Positions 1 through 42,901 of a DNA stretch of 64,000 nt are shown piece by piece. The translations under genes and the position numbers were made by a program. This stretch comes from Candidatus Zambryskiibacteriota bacterium (lineage in GTDB: Bacteria > Patescibacteriota > Minisyncoccia > Phycocordibacterales > WO2-35-19), in assembly GCA_048499675.1 (NCBI GenBank), contig JASNZL010000002.1, positions 40,138 through 104,137 of the forward strand. Direction: 5' to 3'. The notes beneath the pieces were generated by a model. It was not told the origin of the DNA, made no database searches, and saw only the letters and a program-made list of their open reading frames with translations. How positions within the stretch are numbered: position 1 is the first letter of the stretch; each line of letters starts with the position of its first letter.

Positions 1-1058
1 ACCAACCAAGATGATTGTTGCATTTGCATCACCCAAATATCTTTCCTCGTGACCAACAACCCTCCCCCCTTCTGACATTCCAGAACCAGCAATTATAATT
101 TTGGAACCTTTTACATTTTCAATTTGAGAAGACTCACTCACATCTCTAATAATCTTCAGATTTGGAAAATCAAAAATATCATCACCCGAATTTATCTCCT
201 CTTTAACCGATTCTTTAAATCTATCTTTGTATTTTTCGTATATAGCTGTAACTTTGGAAGCCAGCGGTGAATCAAGGAAGACGGGCACTTGTGCGATTTC
301 TCCATCTTCAACCATATTATTTATTTCATAAAGTAAAACTTGTGTCCTCTCAATAGAAAATGCCGGAATTACAATCGTTCCACCTTTCTCTATTCCCTCT
401 ATAAGGGCCTCTTTTAATTTCTCTCGTCTCTCTTTTTTTGTCTCATGATTTCTATCACCATAAACACTTTCCATTACCAAATAATCGGCCTTTACAGGGA
501 ATTCGTTGTCTGGAAGGAGTGGAGAAGGACTATTGCCCAAATCTCCCGTAAAAGCGACTGTTTTATCGCCACAAGTGACATTTATAATCGCCGAGCCCAA
601 TATGTGTCCAGCATTAATCATTTTTAAACTGCAATCTGGAAACAAATCTATTTTTTCATCATAATCAAATCCTTCCCACAGAGATAAAGATTTATCAATA
701 TCTTTCTCATCAAACATTTCCTTATCTTTATGACGCATCCTCATGACCTTCAAAGCATCATGAAGCATTGGATTCGCCAAATCTTTTGTTTCTTGTGTTG
801 AAATAATTTTGCCGTTAAACCCCTCTCTTACAAGTTTTGGAATTCTTCCTATATGGTCCATGTGCGCATGAGTAATGAGCAAAAAATCCACAGAACTCGG
901 ATCATACACAAAGTCCAAAAAGTTTTTCTCTTCCGCTTCTCTCCCTCCCTGAATCAAACCACAATCAACCAGAACTTTCCTATTATTAAAATTGAGCATA
1001 ATATTTGCTCCAGTTGTTGATCCAACTCCCCCGTAAAAATTTAAGCTCAATTTTTCCA
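1..1058 (-). CDS. MBL-fold beta-CASP ribonuclease (TTHA0252/RNase J-like), C-terminus beyond window start
   Basis: Reverse translation from ATG at 1058: MEKLSLNFYGGVGSTTGANIMLNF...VDCGLIQGG...LLITHAHMDHIGRIPKLVREGFNGKII, a metallo-beta-lactamase HxHxDH motif with beta-CASP-like downstream region; ORF runs off the window edge. Confidence 0.7.
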
Positions 1059-9036: not shown

Positions 9037-9124
9037 GGAGAGTTGGCTGAGTGGTCGAAAGCGCCTCACTGCTAACGAGGTGAGCCCTTTAAAGGCTCCG
9101 AGGGTTCGAATCCCTCACTCTCCG
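9037..9124 (+). tRNA. tRNA-Ser (anticodon GCT)
   Basis: Cloverleaf: acceptor GGAGAGT/ACTCTCC, D-arm with GG, anticodon loop CTGCTAA, long variable arm GAGCC-CTTTAAA-GGCTC, T-arm CGAGG-GTTCGAAT-CCCTC, discriminator G; no encoded CCA. Confidence 0.8.
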
Positions 9125-9258
9125 CTTGAGCTTCGCGAAAGCGGAGAGTGAGGTCTAGCTTTTGTGCAACAAAAGCGTAAGACGGATTCGAAGCCCGATT
9201 GAGATTTTTTAGGAGGACAACGAACTAAAAAATCCAATTGGGGTACTGAAGCTGTAAG
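9125..9258 (+). repeat. 134-bp element directly 3-prime of tRNA-Ser; direct repeat of 14922-15055
   Basis: Near-identical (2-3 mismatches) to 14922-15055; starts with a hairpin pairing the tRNA acceptor 3-prime strand; ends ...ggggtactgaagctgtaag. Confidence 0.8.
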
Positions 9259-9259
9259 C

Positions 9260-9299
9260 TTCGAATCCCTCACTCTCCGCTTGAGCTTCGCGAAAGCGG
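9260..9299 (+). repeat. 40-bp duplicate of tRNA-Ser 3-prime end (T-loop to end) plus 20 nt downstream
   Basis: Identical to 9105-9144 (ttcgaatccctcactctccgcttgagcttcgcgaaagcgg). Confidence 0.85.
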
Positions 9300-9351
9300 T
9301 GTGTATTGGACGAAGTTCGAATGTATTTCGGACAAAATCCGCAGGATTTTG

Positions 9352-9490
9352 ACGAATGACACTTGCGCCTCGCGCTCCCTTCGGTCGCGAACCAAAACCA
9401 AAAATTTCCTTACCAATCCTTTTTCGGCGGGGGGTGTGGGGGGAGCCGGCAAAAAATGGAAAGGAAAATTTTTGGTTTTGGTTCCGACGC
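9352..9490. repeat. left copy of an imperfect inverted repeat bracketing the 9.5-14.65 kb cargo; internally a 21-bp-stem hairpin with a G-rich loop
   Basis: Its reverse complement matches 14660-14795 (~85%); inner stem gaaccaaaaccaaaaatttcc / ggaaaatttttggttttggttc; loop contains cggcggggggtgtggggggagccggc. Confidence 0.75.
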
Positions 9491-9552
9491 TTCATAAATA
9501 CAGTATATGGCAATTTGGAATAATACACAATGGAATATTATTATATAAATAT

Positions 9553-9774
9553 ATGCCAAGAGCAATTTATCAAGATGACCACAAGAAAATCGTTGAGCGC
9601 TTGAAACAAGCACGGCTTGAGGTTGGTCTTGGGCAGGTTGAAGTTGCTGAGAAGCTTGGTAGAACTCAGTCGTATGTCTCAAAGATTGAATCAGGGCAAC
9701 GGCGCTTTGATGTTTTGCAACTCAAAGAGTTTGCAAAACTTTATAAAAAATCCTTGGATTTTTTTGTTAAATAA
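9553..9774 (+). CDS. XRE-family helix-turn-helix transcriptional regulator (C-protein-like)
   Basis: LKQARLEVGLGQVEVAEKLGRTQSYVSKIESGQRRFDVLQLKEFAKLY is a classic Cro/C1 HTH; the start is placed at the internal ATG because the upstream part of the track ORF lies in the repeat. Confidence 0.7.
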   Translation: MPRAIYQDDHKKIVERLKQARLEVGLGQVEVAEKLGRTQSYVSKIESGQRRFDVLQLKEFAKLYKKSLDFFVK

Positions 9775-10858: not shown

Positions 10859-12436
10859 TTATTGCATTGCTCGCATCATTTCTTTTGCCACAGCTTCAAT
10901 AACAGGAACACTAACGGAATTTCCAGCTTGTTTGTATAGTGCCGAATCAGAAATTTTTGGAAGTTTGTAATTTTTTGGAAAGCCTTGAATTCTAAAACAC
11001 TCTAACGGAGTCAATTTTCGTATACCCTTTTTATCTTTTATGATTGGCACATTATGTCCACCTGTCCCCATGTTTGCAGTTAAAGTTGGGCAAACACCAC
11101 TTTTATTTTCTCTAACATATTGTCTGCGCCATTGATACACTTTACCTTCTTCCTTTACGTCATTTTTTAATCTTTCATATAATGGCTTGCCATTATAGTA
11201 ATATTTTTCAGGCACGTTTTTCTCCAATAGATCGGTTACTTTTTTCGTGAGCTTTATTGGTTTTGGAAACTCAAACTTATCAAAGTAGTTTTTATTTTTG
11301 AACCCTACAATATAGATACGCTCTCGATTTTGTGGCACATTTCCATACTCCATAGTATTTAGAACTTTTGATTTTACAAAGTATCCAAGATCTTCAAGTG
11401 TTTTTTCTATAACCTCAAAAGTTTTCCCCGAATCATGGCTCTTTAGATTTTTTACATTTTCAAGCAAAAAGCCTTCTGGTTTTCGTGCCTCAATGATCCT
11501 TGCAATATCGAAAAATAAATTTCCTCTATCCTTTTTATCTTTAAAGCCGTGCCTATATCCAGCAATAGAAAAAGCTTGGCAAGGGAAACCTCCTAAAAGA
11601 AAATCAAATTTAGGCAAATCATCAATTCCAATTTTTCGTATATCCTCAACTATTAATTTTGAATCTTTAAAATTAAGATCGTATGTATCTTTACATTGTG
11701 GTTCAAAGTCATTAGCAAAAACTGTTTGGAATCCAGCATTTTCAAAACCGATCCTTATCCCTCCTACACCCGCAAATAAATCTATTGTATTAAAACCATG
11801 TTTAGTTTTTTGTTTTGGCTTGAATTCTTCTTCGAACTGTATATTTCTAATTACTTGGACAACAACACCCCGAACTTCAACCTCTTTTCTATAAAATGGG
11901 AGCATTGATTGATTTCTCGGTTCAAGCCTAAACCGTGATTTTTCTCTATACAACTTTTTGAGTGTTGCTTCATTATCATCAATAATTGCAACGACTGTTT
12001 GTCCATTTTCTGCAACAGACTGTTTTTTTATCACAACAACATCTCCGTCAAAAATACCCTCGTCAATCATACTTTCTCCGACAACTCGTAGAGCATAATA
12101 ATCTTTAGAGTTTTGTATATTAGGATCAACAAGAGAGATAAAATCTTCTCGATTTTCTATTGCCTCAATAGGCTGTCCTGCCGCAATATTGCCTAAAATC
12201 GGAATTTCAACAACAGATTTTATTTCTTTCATGAGAGATAAACTTCTTGGAGAATTTTCAGACCTTGAAATATACCCCTTTGCCTCTAGGGAATTGATAT
12301 GCTCGTGAATGGTGGAAACTGCTTTTAGTTTTAGCTCTTTCCTGATCTCTTCAATCGTTGGGGAAATACCATTTTCAGAGATATATGTTTTTATAAAATC
12401 AAAAACCTGTTTTTGCTTTTTTGTAAGTTTAGACAT
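10859..12436 (-). CDS. fusion protein: complete LexA-like repressor (wHTH + S24 peptidase) fused to a Dcm-type DNA cytosine-5 methyltransferase
   Basis: N-terminal ~200 aa is LexA-like: MSKLTKKQKQVFDFIK...EIRKEL...EAKGYI, IAAG cleavage-site context, GESM serine, LKKL lysine, VVAII..ATLKKLYRE. C-terminal ~320 aa has m5C MTase motifs: DLFAGVGG (I), GGFPCQAFSIAG (IV), LLENV (VI), QNRERIY (VIII), GNSVSVPV (X). Confidence 0.8.
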   Translation of the reverse strand: MSKLTKKQKQVFDFIKTYISENGISPTIEEIRKELKLKAVSTIHEHINSLEAKGYISRSENSPRSLSLMKEIKSVVEIPILGNIAAGQPIEAIENREDFISLVDPNIQNSKDYYALRVVGESMIDEGIFDGDVVVIKKQSVAENGQTVVAIIDDNEATLKKLYREKSRFRLEPRNQSMLPFYRKEVEVRGVVVQVIRNIQFEEEFKPKQKTKHGFNTIDLFAGVGGIRIGFENAGFQTVFANDFEPQCKDTYDLNFKDSKLIVEDIRKIGIDDLPKFDFLLGGFPCQAFSIAGYRHGFKDKKDRGNLFFDIARIIEARKPEGFLLENVKNLKSHDSGKTFEVIEKTLEDLGYFVKSKVLNTMEYGNVPQNRERIYIVGFKNKNYFDKFEFPKPIKLTKKVTDLLEKNVPEKYYYNGKPLYERLKNDVKEEGKVYQWRRQYVRENKSGVCPTLTANMGTGGHNVPIIKDKKGIRKLTPLECFRIQGFPKNYKLPKISDSALYKQAGNSVSVPVIEAVAKEMMRAMQ

Positions 12437-12522
12437 ATTGCATTAAAAATTCATTTGCGCTACAATTTCATTGTAACCGAAAAGAAGCCGAAAAGTAAAG
12501 CGAGATTATCCACAATAATATT

Positions 12523-13764
12523 ATGAACGAACATTTTGAAAAATTTATAGATAATATCTCCCTGACTAAAAATCAAAGAGATGATTCTCTTACAAAATAT
12601 ATTGGAATATGCAAAACTCTGAATTCTGAATTCTACAGCTCAGAATATTCTGACTCTGTGAAGTTTTTGTTTGGCTCCTATAAGAAGAAAACAACCATTT
12701 CACATACAGGAAAAGATGTTGATGTTATTTTTAAAATCCCACAAGAAAAATTTGAAGAGTACCAAAAGCAAGAAAATGGACCCTCTAACCTGTTGACCAA
12801 AGTTAAAAATACTCTGAAAGACACTTATTCAACTACAGACAAAATAAAAAATTGGACAAAAGTGGTGGTGGTTGATTTCTCTACTTTTAAGGTAGAGATA
12901 CTCCCTGCGCTTGAAAAAGATGATGGTAAATTTATTGTTCCCAACACTGGAGATGGAGAAGATTGGATTATTTTTGATCCAAAAAGCGAAATAACGAGTT
13001 TTAAAAATTCAAATAACTCAAACAATGGGTTAACAAGAAACTTAATTAAAATTATCAAGAAATGGAAAATTGAAACAGGAAACGTAAATATAAAAACTTA
13101 CATTTTGGATAAGTACGTCATAGATTTTTTGAGTAATTATTCTTTTGCAAGTTATCCGAAAACCATTTTAGATTTTTTTGAATATTTGCATAAAAAAGAA
13201 AGTGGAACAAATATAGAAACAGCAAAAAATAGAGCAAAAAAAGCATATGCTTTTTACGAAGAAAACAATATTGAAAAGGCGGTAGAAGAATATCAAAAAA
13301 TCTTTGTGAATGGTTTCCCTAGAAATATTAAAAAAGAAGTTGGTGACTTTACAGATTACGTTAAAGCTCCAAATGAACAATTCATAGAAGATTTTTTTAG
13401 AGTTTCTTTAGATAAAAAAATAGACATTAATATTGAAACACGATGTAAACCTAAAAAAGGAGGCTTTATGAAGAGCATATTGTTGAGTAGATTACCAAAT
13501 GGTTGGGTATCTAAAAAAGATGATCTTGAGTTCGTTCTTAATACTAAAAACTTATCTGGGGAGTACTTAACTAAATGGAAAGTAAGAAATTTTGGCGAAG
13601 AAGCAACAAGAGATGGTAAACTCAGGGGAGAGATACTTGAGGATAATAATGGGATTCATAAATATAAAGACGGTGCGGCATTTTATGGAGAACATTTTTT
13701 AGAGTGTTACATTATTCAAAATAATATATGTATCGCGAGAAAAAGAGTTGTTGTACCAATATAG
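12523..13764 (+). CDS. pol-beta-superfamily nucleotidyltransferase resembling CD-NTase/SMODS (cGAS/DncV-like)
   Basis: FLFGSYKKKTTISHTGKDVDVIF fits the GS-x(9-13)-DhD signature, with a third acidic strand VVVVDFSTFKVEILPA; 413 aa; followed by a 2-TM partner. Confidence 0.45.
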   Translation: MNEHFEKFIDNISLTKNQRDDSLTKYIGICKTLNSEFYSSEYSDSVKFLFGSYKKKTTISHTGKDVDVIFKIPQEKFEEYQKQENGPSNLLTKVKNTLKDTYSTTDKIKNWTKVVVVDFSTFKVEILPALEKDDGKFIVPNTGDGEDWIIFDPKSEITSFKNSNNSNNGLTRNLIKIIKKWKIETGNVNIKTYILDKYVIDFLSNYSFASYPKTILDFFEYLHKKESGTNIETAKNRAKKAYAFYEENNIEKAVEEYQKIFVNGFPRNIKKEVGDFTDYVKAPNEQFIEDFFRVSLDKKIDINIETRCKPKKGGFMKSILLSRLPNGWVSKKDDLEFVLNTKNLSGEYLTKWKVRNFGEEATRDGKLRGEILEDNNGIHKYKDGAAFYGEHFLECYIIQNNICIARKRVVVPI

Positions 13765-13768
13765 AAAT

Positions 13769-14332
13769 ATGGATAAAAACAATCTATCAATCATAAGGCA
13801 ACAGTTTGCACAATGTGTGTTTACTCACAAGGTCTTGGAAAAGGCTTCTGATAGACTTGAGAAAGTAAATACGAAGATCAAATGGGCTAACGTCATAATT
13901 TTAGCCCTTGTTGTGGTTTTTCTTGTATTGCCAATTAGATTTCCTGAGTACTCATTTTTGAATGATGTCGCTATAGCCATAACAGTCTTTGAAATTTTAT
14001 TTGTCTATTTTCAAAAGGAATTTTCTTTTGAAGAAAAAGCAAAAGATCACAAAAAATTTGCCTTAAAATTTCTAGAGCTTCGTGATAAGTACAAAAATTT
14101 TATTGTTGATATAACAAACGGATTAGATAGTGGAGAAATCAGAACAAAGAGAGACCTTTTACAAGAACAGTATCAGATTATTAGTAGTTTAACCCCACAA
14201 ACTGAGTATATTGACTATAAAGAAGCGCAACTTGCTTTGTTGGGAAAAAATATTTCTGATGAAGAATTTACATGGTCTGACAAAGAGATAGATCGTTTTT
14301 TACCGAAAGAGTTAAGATTCGAAGAAGATTAA
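13769..14332 (+). CDS. small 2-TM protein, candidate SLATT-like effector partnered with the nucleotidyltransferase
   Basis: Two hydrophobic helices (WANVIILALVVVFLVLPI, VAIAITVFEILFVYF) then a charged C-term; overlaps the end of the upstream gene, suggesting coupling; an alternative TTG start lies at 13748. Confidence 0.4.
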   Translation: MDKNNLSIIRQQFAQCVFTHKVLEKASDRLEKVNTKIKWANVIILALVVVFLVLPIRFPEYSFLNDVAIAITVFEILFVYFQKEFSFEEKAKDHKKFALKFLELRDKYKNFIVDITNGLDSGEIRTKRDLLQEQYQIISSLTPQTEYIDYKEAQLALLGKNISDEEFTWSDKEIDRFLPKELRFEED

Positions 14333-14390
14333 AGAGGGTTTCGCTTGCGCGCGCATGGGAGGGTTGGGGCAAGCGCAATATGATTTGCTT

Positions 14391-14426
14391 GTGCCATTCG
14401 TCAGTTTGGCACAATCCGCTTTTTTA
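14391..14426 (+). terminator. rho-independent terminator after the 2-TM gene
   Basis: gtgcca-ttcgtcagtt-tggcac then aatccgctttttt. Confidence 0.5.
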
Positions 14427-14659
14427 GAGTTACCACGAACGCCGTCGAAGTCACAGAGCGAACACGAAGCAAGTACCGAGCAGGCATCGTGAGCGAATGC
14501 GAACGGCAAATGCGAGGTGATTGCGAAGTGTGAGCGGACGACAGAGCTATCACAAAACGCGGAGAGGAAGCGCCTCGCCCGACGCGAATGACGGAGAAAA
14601 GGACGGACGGAATATTGCCACCATGCTAAAATATACATACGAGTCCTTTTTGGAGGAAT

Positions 14660-14795
14660 GAAGCGGCGGAAACAAAACCATAAAATTTCCTTTCATTTTT
14701 TGAGCGGCTCCCCCCACACCCCCCGCCGAAAATGGATAGGTAAGGAAATTTTTGGTTTTGGTTCGCGACCGCAGGGAGCGAGGCGCGCACTGTTC
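14660..14795. repeat. right copy of the inverted hairpin repeat (partner of 9352-9490)
   Basis: ggaaacaaaaccataaaatttcc ... ggaaatttttggttttggttc stem with loop gagcggctccccccacaccccccgccg. Confidence 0.75.
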
Positions 14796-14921
14796 GCTTC
14801 ACCACGCCTGCCTGCGCCGAGGCTTCGGCAGGCAGGCAATCCGAGCGTACGATTTGGGTTCAAAGCCACCACGCGCTCCGCGCGTGCGAAGTGGGTTCGG
14901 GCAAAGGTTAGTATCTCACCG

Positions 14922-15055
14922 CTTGAGCTTCGCGAAAGCGGAGAGTGAGGTCTAGCTTTTGTGCAACAAAAGCGTAAGACGGATTCGAAGCCCGATTGAG
15001 ATTTTTTAGGAGGGCAACGAACTAAAAAATCCAATTGGGGTACTGAAACTGTAAG
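14922..15055 (+). repeat. second copy of the 134-bp tRNA-Ser-downstream element, followed by a tRNA-like 3-prime fragment with encoded CCA (15056-15079)
   Basis: cttgagcttcgcgaaagcggagagtgagg...ggggtactgaaactgtaag, then tttcgactcctgtcccatccacca, which parses as T-loop, T-stem 3-prime, 7-nt acceptor 3-prime, discriminator and CCA. Confidence 0.75.
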
Positions 15056-15094
15056 TTTCGACTCCTGTCCCATCCACCAAGTTTTACATTCAGC

Positions 15095-42168: not shown

Positions 42169-42460
42169 TTCAAGTATAAAAATATACTTGTATATAATTT
42201 AGCATAAATATTTTTATTAACAAAATCAACTTTTGGATAAAAATGACAAATCATACCAAAAGACTAAAAGTATTATAGAATTTACGAACAAAAAGTAATA
42301 TAATTAACTTAGTGTCTTTATGGTCTAGTAGACCTTATTTATCAACATAACTGTGGATAACTTTGGGGACACTGTGTATAAGTCAAAGTCAATAGATTTA
42401 ATATATGGCTTAAAATAAGGATTTATTGAAAAGACAGACTTTTACACAGTCCTATAATTA

Positions 42461-42901
42461 TTGACACAATTTTATATGGCATTACACAACGAACTAGGGG
42501 AAATGGGGGAGAATATTGCTTCTAATTTTCTTATAAATAAAGGTTTTAAACTGATAGAAAGGAACCATAATAGAAAATGGGGAGAGATAGATATAATTCT
42601 ACACAAAGACAAAAGACTACATTTTGTTGAAGTCAAAACAGTAAAAAGACAGTCAGTAAATGGATTTTTTGAGCAACCAATGACAAACACATTATCAAAA
42701 AGCAAAAATGAGATAAGACCCGAGGAAAATATGCACATTCACAAAGTTAAAAGATTGAAACGAGTTATTGAGACATACTTGCTTGAAAATAAACACAAAT
42801 GGGGAAGTGAGGTGGTTTGGCAGTTTGATTTGGTATGTGTTTATGCTGATCCAGATAAAAAAGTGGCTAAGGTAAGTATTATGCAAAATCTTATATTATA
42901 A
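42461..42901 (+). CDS. YraN-family (UPF0102) PD-(D/E)xK endonuclease-like protein
   Basis: GE.IA..FL..KGF.LIERN.R...GEIDII......LHFVEVKT. Confidence 0.7.
   Translation: MTQFYMALHNELGEMGENIASNFLINKGFKLIERNHNRKWGEIDIILHKDKRLHFVEVKTVKRQSVNGFFEQPMTNTLSKSKNEIRPEENMHIHKVKRLKRVIETYLLENKHKWGSEVVWQFDLVCVYADPDKKVAKVSIMQNLIL

Follow-up and report, generated by a model that had tools for sequence, protein, structure and literature searches.

A LexA repressor fused to a C5 DNA methyltransferase

We analyzed a 64,000-nucleotide stretch of DNA, hereafter the window, from a Candidatus Zambryskiibacteriota bacterium (contig JASNZL010000002.1), and in it a gene that encodes a LexA repressor and a cytosine-C5 DNA methyltransferase (MTase) in one polypeptide chain. 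This gene, called M below, lies between a candidate restriction endonuclease gene (R) with its controller gene (C) on one side and two genes of an antiphage system that signals through cyclic oligonucleotides (CBASS) on the other (Table 1). Its open reading frame (ORF) starts with ATG and continues without interruption for 525 amino acids.

As evidenced by Pfam searches, the protein consists of LexA_DNA_bind (PF01726, residues 1-64, 8.2e-20), Peptidase_S24 (residues 79-193, 6.5e-28) and DNA_methylase (PF00145, residues 215-521, 1.3e-94). Residues 1-200 score 196.6 bits against the NCBIfam lexA equivalog TIGR00498, for which the cutoff is 110.95, and the remainder scores 347.8 bits against TIGR00675 (dcm). 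Among structures in the PDB, the N-terminal 200 residues match those of LexA (3K2Z, 1e-36), while the C-terminal 310 residues match M.HhaI, the closest solved methyltransferase, from end to end (1.7e-60). When the fusion is aligned with E. coli LexA, Ala86-Gly87 in the motif IAAG corresponds to A84-G85, Ser122 (GESM) to S119 and Lys160 (LKKL) to K156, and every sequence-level hallmark of LexA is present, namely the winged helix-turn-helix (wHTH) DNA-binding domain, the Ser/Lys dyad of the S24 domain and the Ala-Gly scissile bond. The MTase part carries motifs I, IV, VI, VIII and X (FAGVGG at 221, FPCQ at 284, ENV at 326, QNRER at 369 and GNSV at 505) and a target-recognition region with a TL dipeptide. 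A preliminary description of this DNA had proposed a LexA N-terminus with an Ala-Gly cleavage site and a Ser/Lys dyad, followed by a full m5C MTase with these five motifs; both proposals are borne out by the profiles, in which all three domains were found, by the alignment, in which the catalytic Ser and Lys are in place, and by the motif positions. Note that an AlphaFold model of the fusion, with a mean predicted local distance difference test score (pLDDT) of 61 and values below 50 at residues 76-215, was uninformative on the junction.

Table 1. Features of the window and of related loci carrying the fusion; positions are those of the window.
Feature	Position or occurrence	Strand	Basis or remark
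LexA-C5 DNA methyltransferase fusion (M subunit)	10859..12436	-	profile searches and alignments
Domains of the fusion (residues)			wHTH 1-64; S24 79-198 (Ala86-Gly87, Ser122, Lys160); variable linker 199-215; MTase 216-525
Candidate restriction endonuclease (R), 360 aa	9776..10858	+	convergent with M, zero gap; invariant nuclease motif
Controller (C) protein gene, 73-aa XRE-type HTH	9553..9774	+	directly upstream of R (R start 9776)
C-box-like sequence TATATGGCAATTTGGAATAATACACAATGGAATA	9504..9537	+	upstream of C gene, conserved in about 20 loci
M promoter: -35 TTTACT 12499-12494, 18-nt spacer, -10 TACAAT 12475-12470	12470..12499	-	listed by promoter scan
Direct repeat TTCGG-N6-TTCGG, proposed LexA-domain operator	12477..12492	-	inside M promoter spacer
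TGTGGATAA, reverse complement of DnaA-box consensus TTATCCACA	12506..12514	-	upstream of M -35
Palindrome TACAAT-GAA-ATTGTA	12461..12475		two back-to-back -10 hexamers, one per strand
Putative divergent promoter TTGCAT-17-TACAAT	12438..12466	+	-35 abuts M start codon; toward CBASS genes
CBASS oligonucleotide cyclase (SMODS + AGS-C)	12523..13764	+	PADLOC Cyclase 1.8e-90; divergent from M
CBASS two-transmembrane (2TM) effector (SLATT_4)	13769..14332	+	PADLOC 2TM effector 2.6e-40
Left terminal inverted repeat, 132-nt, GC-rich	9364..9495	+	
Right terminal inverted repeat	14658..14789	-	89-91% identical to left copy
tRNA-Ser(GCT)	9037-9125		beside window island
R family C1	25 loci		RE_Bsp6I
R family C3 (the window's)	13 loci		no Pfam match
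R family C4	9 loci		PDDEXK_5
R family C9	6 loci		NgoFVII B3-like DNA-binding domain
R families C7, C8, C10	6 loci each		unannotated; C10 weak HTH_17 match below Pfam cutoff
R family C15	4 loci		unannotated
Divergent neighbour	L019		CBASS patatin effector, cyclase gene beyond
Divergent neighbour	L042 (same family in L031)		PDC-M50A
Divergent neighbour	L025		PDC-S39
Divergent neighbour	L062		DitA
Divergent neighbour	L043		PDC-M04A
Divergent neighbours	L017, L022, L035		SEC-C proteins
Divergent neighbour	L018		DUF5677
Divergent neighbour	6-7 loci		Vsr mismatch endonuclease

A large family in Patescibacteria

Relatives were sought among 5.8 billion proteins and in a genome scan with one genome per species. 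The loci so obtained are labelled L001-L083; the protein alignment comprises 79 sequences, the comparison of upstream regions 81, and genes downstream of M were counted in the 76 loci with enough sequence. The fusion occurs in more than 120 independent 90% clusters, in each case with all three domains (79-97% identity, 520-527 aa), from Moran-, Parcu-, Yanofsky-, Taylor- and Paceibacteria, where the sources name it 'transcriptional repressor LexA' or 'DNA (cytosine-5)-methyltransferase 1'; upon clustering at 50% it reduces to one family. The species-representative genomes contain at least 526 confirmed stretches with the fusion, and the best 80 of these are all essentially full length at 66-93% identity. 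An identical protein is encoded on an independent contig. The orthologous fusions that the preliminary description had named as a check thus exist in number, and hundreds of independent full-length copies rule out an assembly artefact or a frameshift between two genes. The fusion is not a one-off, and its large patescibacterial family can already be found in sequence databases, where the names were assigned automatically. In viral contigs and GenBank phages there were LexA-only or partial matches, and no fusion.

Throughout the 79 aligned sequences A86, S122 and K160 are invariant and G87 is kept in 78; FPCQ, ENV and QNRER are likewise invariant, and GNSV is conserved at 99-100%. The target-recognition region is the best-conserved segment, with a mean fraction of 0.88 of sequences sharing the residue of the window, and the junction at residues 199-215 is the least conserved (0.34), which points to a flexible linker. 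Both halves of the protein are thus under purifying selection, including the residues needed solely for self-cleavage.

Other combinations of these modules were seen in passing. Among the top matches with N-terminally extended MTases, a LexA module was present only in P0198, a divergent 777-aa relative composed of LexA, S24, Dcm and an extra Eco57I-like domain; one other carries RadC and one Bsp6I. In locus L077 (1632-3497, plus strand) an independent 621-aa fusion joins LexA and S24 to an N6/N4 amino-MTase and has its own convergent 233-aa gene, and this locus thus has two LexA-MTase fusions with different operators. Locus L055 (6006-6584, minus strand) encodes a standalone 192-aa LexA-like protein with the motifs VTAG, GDSM and TMKY, 30% identical to the LexA part of the fusion, at 2.6 kb from the LexA-Dcm gene; the two kinds of gene thus occur together in one genome at least. 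The 64-kb window contains no second LexA.

A restriction-modification cassette with an interchangeable endonuclease

A gene lies tail-to-tail with M in 75 of the 76 loci, usually 1-4 bp away or overlapping. These convergent genes fall into eight mutually unrelated families, three of which have restriction-enzyme matches in Pfam. The candidate in the window matched nothing in Pfam, NCBIfam or PADLOC, and it has 445 relatives annotated as 'hypothetical'; the motif P-D89 ... E119-V-K121 is invariant in its family, and nuclease activity is predicted from it. An AlphaFold model of this protein had a mean pLDDT of 50, and a Foldseek comparison with the PDB returned nothing below E = 0.2. The small gene directly upstream of R encodes a helix-turn-helix (HTH) protein (HTH_3, 1e-11) with an HTH match and a weak Control_protein match (8.5e-4) in PADLOC. 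In about 20 loci the same 73-aa protein precedes R genes that belong to four different families; together with the conserved sequence before it, it gives the cassette the layout of a restriction-modification (R-M) system under C-protein control. The preliminary description had noted a C-protein-like XRE gene and an unassigned ORF, convergent with M, and had suggested that the latter could be the cognate endonuclease. Both genes are present with the extents given in Table 1, and the suggestion gains support from the PD...E-V-K motif and from the recurrence of the M/R arrangement. Its sequence and the candidate endonuclease gene adjoining it identify the fusion as the modification subunit (M) of a type II R-M cassette.

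The identity of R is nearly independent of the M tree, as the nearest M relative shares the R family in 21 of 74 cases against a chance expectation of 19%. M proteins that are 95-97% identical stand beside unrelated R genes in L017 and L022, in L006 and L011, and in L053 and L056. The R gene of the cassette is interchangeable, and since a single conserved M has been combined almost at random with R genes of eight unrelated families, the cassette amounts to a natural experiment in restriction-enzyme exchange.

With respect to the target site, GCNGC occurs 60 times in the window versus 154 expected (0.39), the lowest ratio among the 16 SS-N-SS patterns, and the depletion extends to each of the four middle bases. 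When all 1024 pentamers are ranked in 1.15 Mb of related loci, the four that match GCNGC show the strongest depletion. As this is the most depleted pentamer class, GCNGC is most likely the target of the cassette, and it is by inference that we assign the depletion to this particular system. Bsp6I cuts GCNGC and NgoFVII cuts GCSGC, and the depletion is consistent with both specificities. A GCGC specificity was also considered, prompted by the likeness to M.HhaI and by a GCGC in the leader of M (the stretch from the -10 hexamer to the start codon), and was rejected, as the recognition residues differ, GCGC itself is at 0.92 and the GCGC in the leader is unconserved. Strong depletion in the window is also seen for CCNGG (observed/expected 0.40) and GGCC (0.49), and moderate depletion for TCGA, GATC and CATG (0.56-0.60), which suggests that other restriction systems exert pressure now or did so formerly.

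A direct repeat in the promoter of M

The 140 nt upstream of M are conserved at the level of motifs across loci whose proteins are 66-90% identical. In the anchored alignment the order of elements is TGTGGATAA, a -35-like TTGnnn, a spacer containing TTCGG-N6-TTCGG, and TATAAT, so that the pair equivalent to the M promoter of the window is conserved. The direct repeat has the highest information content in the control region and is found upstream of M in 68 of 81 cases. In 1.19 Mb of loci it occurs these 68 times and nowhere but at the M promoter, and the 64-kb window holds a single copy; the own promoter is thus the sole location of the repeat in this material, which contained no recA or uvr promoters. 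This confinement argues for a dedicated operator and not for a regulon-wide box. The preliminary description had proposed a search for SOS-box-like palindromes between 12437 and 12522; here its expectation did not hold, since the sole palindrome in this region is made of the two back-to-back -10 hexamers and the conserved element is a direct repeat.

A further indication comes from recognition helix alpha-3 of the LexA domain, which reads ST[IV]H[EQ]H in loci with the TTCGG repeat and STA[HY][HFY][HY] in the few loci that have TTTCTA or TTTCGA instead. The separate LexA-N6/N4-MTase of L077 has the helix STAHYH, paired with TTTCTA-N5-TTTCTA in the spacer of its own promoter. The variable positions of the helix correspond to A43 and E45 of E. 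coli LexA, and in the LexA-DNA structure E45 contacts bases. Because the repeat is unique to its own promoter and co-varies with the recognition helix, TTCGG-N6-TTCGG most likely serves the LexA domain as its operator for autoregulation.

The DnaA-box-like element CTGTGGATAAC accompanies the M promoter in 53 of the 81 loci, in most cases 20-23 nt ahead of the first TTCGG; in divergent loci it takes other positions and orientations, whichever class of operator is present. A second copy of CTGTGGATAAC in the window is intergenic (42350-42360, plus strand), upstream of an ORF at 42461-42901 that is YraN-like by eye.

A putative divergent promoter and variable cargo

The palindrome downstream of the repeat places a second -10 hexamer on the opposite strand, and equivalent palindromes occur in L030, L053 and the second cassette of L077. 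Together with a -35-like hexamer this forms a putative divergent promoter, and TTGnnn-16..18-TAnnnT is found at the equivalent position in 38 of the 81 loci. The promoter scan did not list it because its match to the consensus falls below the threshold. The conservation of the leader is explained if its opposite strand is read as a promoter, and transcripts that start there would cross the operator at about +4 to +19.

In the window the genes beyond are those of a type I CBASS, with cyclase and 2TM effector and no further genes inside the inverted repeats, and CBASS and M have an 86-bp control region in common, a point absent from the preliminary description. The nearest upstream gene is divergent in 72 of the 81 loci, begins within 120 nt of the M start codon in 33 of them, belongs to many families and often has a role in defence. 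A scan of 64 divergent neighbours returned, besides those of Table 1, OLD/TOPRIM ATPases and DpnI. We also looked for a fixed divergent partner and found none, as only Vsr recurs; Vsr is the usual companion of C5 methylation. CBASS was the divergent neighbour in only two of the loci examined.

Island borders and mobility

The inverted repeats of the window bracket C, R, M and CBASS. In L014, L017, L022, L042 and L077, inverted repeats of 70-255 nt that are 91-98% identical likewise enclose units of 3.8-5.4 kb with the order [cargo]-M-R-(C). No transposase was found inside these units, and the cassette is inserted at many unrelated genomic sites; it looks like a non-autonomous mobile cassette.

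At the borders of the window island the 3' end of tRNA-Ser(GCT) and the hairpin that follows it are repeated at 9260-9304, and 151-nt direct repeats (9118-9268 and 14915-15065, 97% identical) flank the whole island. These duplications look like att-type integration scars, and there is no integrase between the direct repeats. Beside the right inverted repeat, a non-coding stretch at 14346-14780 is GC-rich (about 50% versus about 32% elsewhere) and is 83-85% conserved in L037 and L042. This 440-nt element was unconvincing as a structured RNA (z = -1.8 on the plus and -0.2 on the minus strand, with an unfavourable covariation term), and Rfam found only the tRNA in the island and its GC-rich flanks.

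A model for regulation and its alternatives

Taking these features together, we lean towards the view that LexA-M is a damage-responsive autorepressor of a mobile R-M cassette and of the gene divergent from it. The LexA module would dimerize via its S24 domain and bind TTCGG-N6-TTCGG, between the -35 and -10 elements of the M promoter and just past the start of the back-to-back promoter on the other strand. Binding would shut off the synthesis of M once sufficient enzyme is present, in the manner of SsoII and Ecl18kI, and would also damp the divergent gene, which is the type I CBASS in the window and Vsr or another defence gene elsewhere. Since M and R are tail-to-tail, with no gap or room for a terminator, transcription of M must run antisense into R. 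Upon DNA damage, RecA filaments on single-stranded DNA would promote the cut at A86-G87 and part the DNA-binding domain from the S24-MTase body. The operator would be vacated, M would go up, R would be dampened by convergent transcription, resulting in restriction alleviation, and the divergent defence gene would be induced. The preliminary description had likewise proposed a RecA-triggered self-cleavage that would act as an SOS-responsive switch of methylation or R-M control; its reading is plausible and has support in part.

Several points weigh against this account. The covariation of helix and operator comes from few independent lineages, one divergent clade and one separate fusion, and the putative divergent promoter of the window agrees with the consensus at only 8 of 12 positions, a canonical form being seen in no more than 38 of the 81 loci. 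Some divergent neighbours are housekeeping genes such as TsaD or ribosomal protein S12, so that a 'cargo slot' is not universal. The model of the S24 domain and the junction, with its pLDDT below 50, gives no structural support for a cleavage-competent conformation, and no recA gene was seen in the window or the loci, so that the co-protease partner is assumed. DNA binding, self-cleavage and its trigger, an active antisense promoter and the way in which R and cargo would respond are all predictions from sequence. If the S24-MTase fragment were degraded after cleavage, the outcome would reverse.

This last variant would turn the cassette into a suicide or addiction switch, in which cleavage exposes degrons, the S24-MTase fragment is destroyed, methylation lapses and the stable R protein cuts its own host's DNA, a device for abortive infection or post-segregational killing fired by RecA filaments during phage attack. 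It draws on the same anatomy as the autorepressor account, the cassette adjoins abortive-infection systems such as CBASS, and the fragments of E. coli LexA are degraded by ClpXP and Lon after cleavage. R-M systems are moreover known to act as addiction modules similar to toxin-antitoxin pairs (PMC3874152). Nevertheless, cleavage removes only the 86-residue DNA-binding domain, the MTase beyond the variable linker should stay active, and derepression of the M promoter would replenish M; ordinary DNA damage would also kill the cell, seemingly a high price for a cassette that hundreds of species carry, and we regard such a switch as unlikely. That the S24 domain serves for dimerization only, in a constitutive repressor of the SsoII kind whose self-cleavage is physiologically unused or answers a signal other than RecA, appears a little less probable still. 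The MTases SsoII, Ecl18kI and EcoRII do autoregulate without proteolysis (PMC12707154, PMC2760811, PMC3978073), and the lack of a recA gene in the window and the loci would fit, but the retention of Ala-Gly, Ser and Lys in 78-79 of 79 sequences that are 66-97% identical is hard to explain if they are unused, and by its score the module is a LexA equivalog.

The equivalog-level match to TIGR00498, together with the name 'transcriptional repressor LexA' that many members carry at NCBI and the lack of a second LexA in the 64-kb window, might also be taken to mean that the fusion is the host's housekeeping LexA, a global SOS repressor joined to a methyltransferase by chance. This seems very improbable to us, as the gene travels in a cassette bounded by inverted repeats at many unrelated sites, the 1.25 Mb contain its operator at no site other than its own promoter, L077 has two LexA-MTase fusions whose operators differ, and L055 has a separate LexA-like gene near the fusion.

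Beyond the damage-responsive autorepressor, we consider it possible, albeit doubtful, that the LexA-MTase is a hub for sensing damage. Cuts that its own endonuclease makes in invading DNA, or damage of another kind, would give rise to RecA filaments that cleave M; methylation would rise, restriction of the host would fall and a plug-in defence gene (CBASS, PDC systems, DitA or Vsr) would be switched on, while R would be swapped among at least eight unrelated families as an escape from phage anti-restriction. If this were true, it would be the first SOS-type proteolytic control wired into a type II R-M enzyme, and it would layer front-line and abortive defences.

Comparison with known systems

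The N-terminal part of the fusion resembles LexA (TIGR00498; PDB 3K2Z, 1JHH, 3JSO) over its full length, with the wHTH and S24 fold families and the catalytic residues in register. Unlike the LexA SOS repressor, it is fused to an enzyme and located on a mobile R-M cassette, and its operator was found only at its own promoter, with no regulon evident. The SOS box of alphaproteobacteria, GTTC-N7-GTTC, is reminiscent of the TTC-containing direct repeat of the fusion with its period of 11 bp. The MTase part is similar to M.HhaI from end to end and differs from it in the target-recognition residues. With R-M systems of the Bsp6I/Fnu4HI type, which recognize GCNGC, the family shares RE_Bsp6I partner endonucleases in 25 loci, and it is GCNGC, not GCGC, that is depleted. 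We know of no N-terminal LexA module in M.HhaI or in enzymes of the Bsp6I/Fnu4HI type.

The likening to SsoII-type MTases with an N-terminal regulatory domain, made in the preliminary description, is apt. The MTases of SsoII, Ecl18kI and EcoRII also have an N-terminal DNA-binding domain on a flexible linker and an operator in their own promoter (PMC2760811, PMC3978073, PMC12707154), and here too an N-terminal DNA-binding domain on a C5 MTase is combined with a promoter-specific repeat, for which an operator role is predicted. In Ecl18kI the promoter of the partner lies opposite the start codon of M and competes with the M promoter for RNA polymerase (PMC2760811); the promoters at our locus overlap similarly, with a putative one opposite the M start codon. 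Differences exist as well, in that a complete LexA of some 200 aa (wHTH and S24, with an intact cleavage site) takes the place of an HTH of about 70 aa as the regulatory module, and the operator is a direct repeat. In addition R is convergent in 75 of 76 loci and outside the shared control region, with a variable defence or repair gene in the divergent position.

In known type II R-M systems the timing of M and R expression depends on C proteins, on antisense RNAs or on a small repressor domain that is part of M, and to our knowledge none of them senses DNA damage. A LexA module on M would give such systems a direct input from DNA damage. MTases that double as repressors and restriction alleviation that follows DNA damage are both established concepts (PMC12707154, PMC2760811), the latter described only for type I systems, via ClpXP (PMC12707154). 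In the literature searched, which left most subscription journals and REBASE outside its scope, no LexA-methyltransferase fusion is described and no paper joins LexA, Patescibacteria and methyltransferase; a 2025 review of R-M systems makes no mention of LexA. Patescibacteria, in which the family abounds, have tiny genomes and hardly any experimental genetics; the predicted properties of the family are nevertheless testable in E. coli with purified protein.

Finally, CapH/CapP, CapW and CapK/CapS are regulators beside defence operons that are proposed or shown to be inactivated upon DNA damage (bioRxiv 10.1101/2022.04.27.489752; PMC11662680; PMC13373217). Damage-sensing regulators located between R-M and CBASS operons are documented (PMC13373217; bioRxiv 10.1101/2022.04.27.489752), and about 20% of the loci with capK and capS are reported to have an R-M operon on one side and an immune operon, for example CBASS, on the other (PMC13373217). 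The order of R-M, regulator and CBASS in the window is the same. The likeness is functional and positional only, since CapH/CapP (HTH and metallopeptidase), CapW (WYL) and CapK/CapS (kinase) are unrelated proteins, the window has no metallopeptidase, and its only match to capH is a weak one of the C protein (1.3e-6). In contrast to all of these, the sensor-repressor would here be a self-cleaving LexA module within the M subunit, and LexA-M would join the growing class of regulators that tie anti-phage defence to DNA damage, as a self-contained member.

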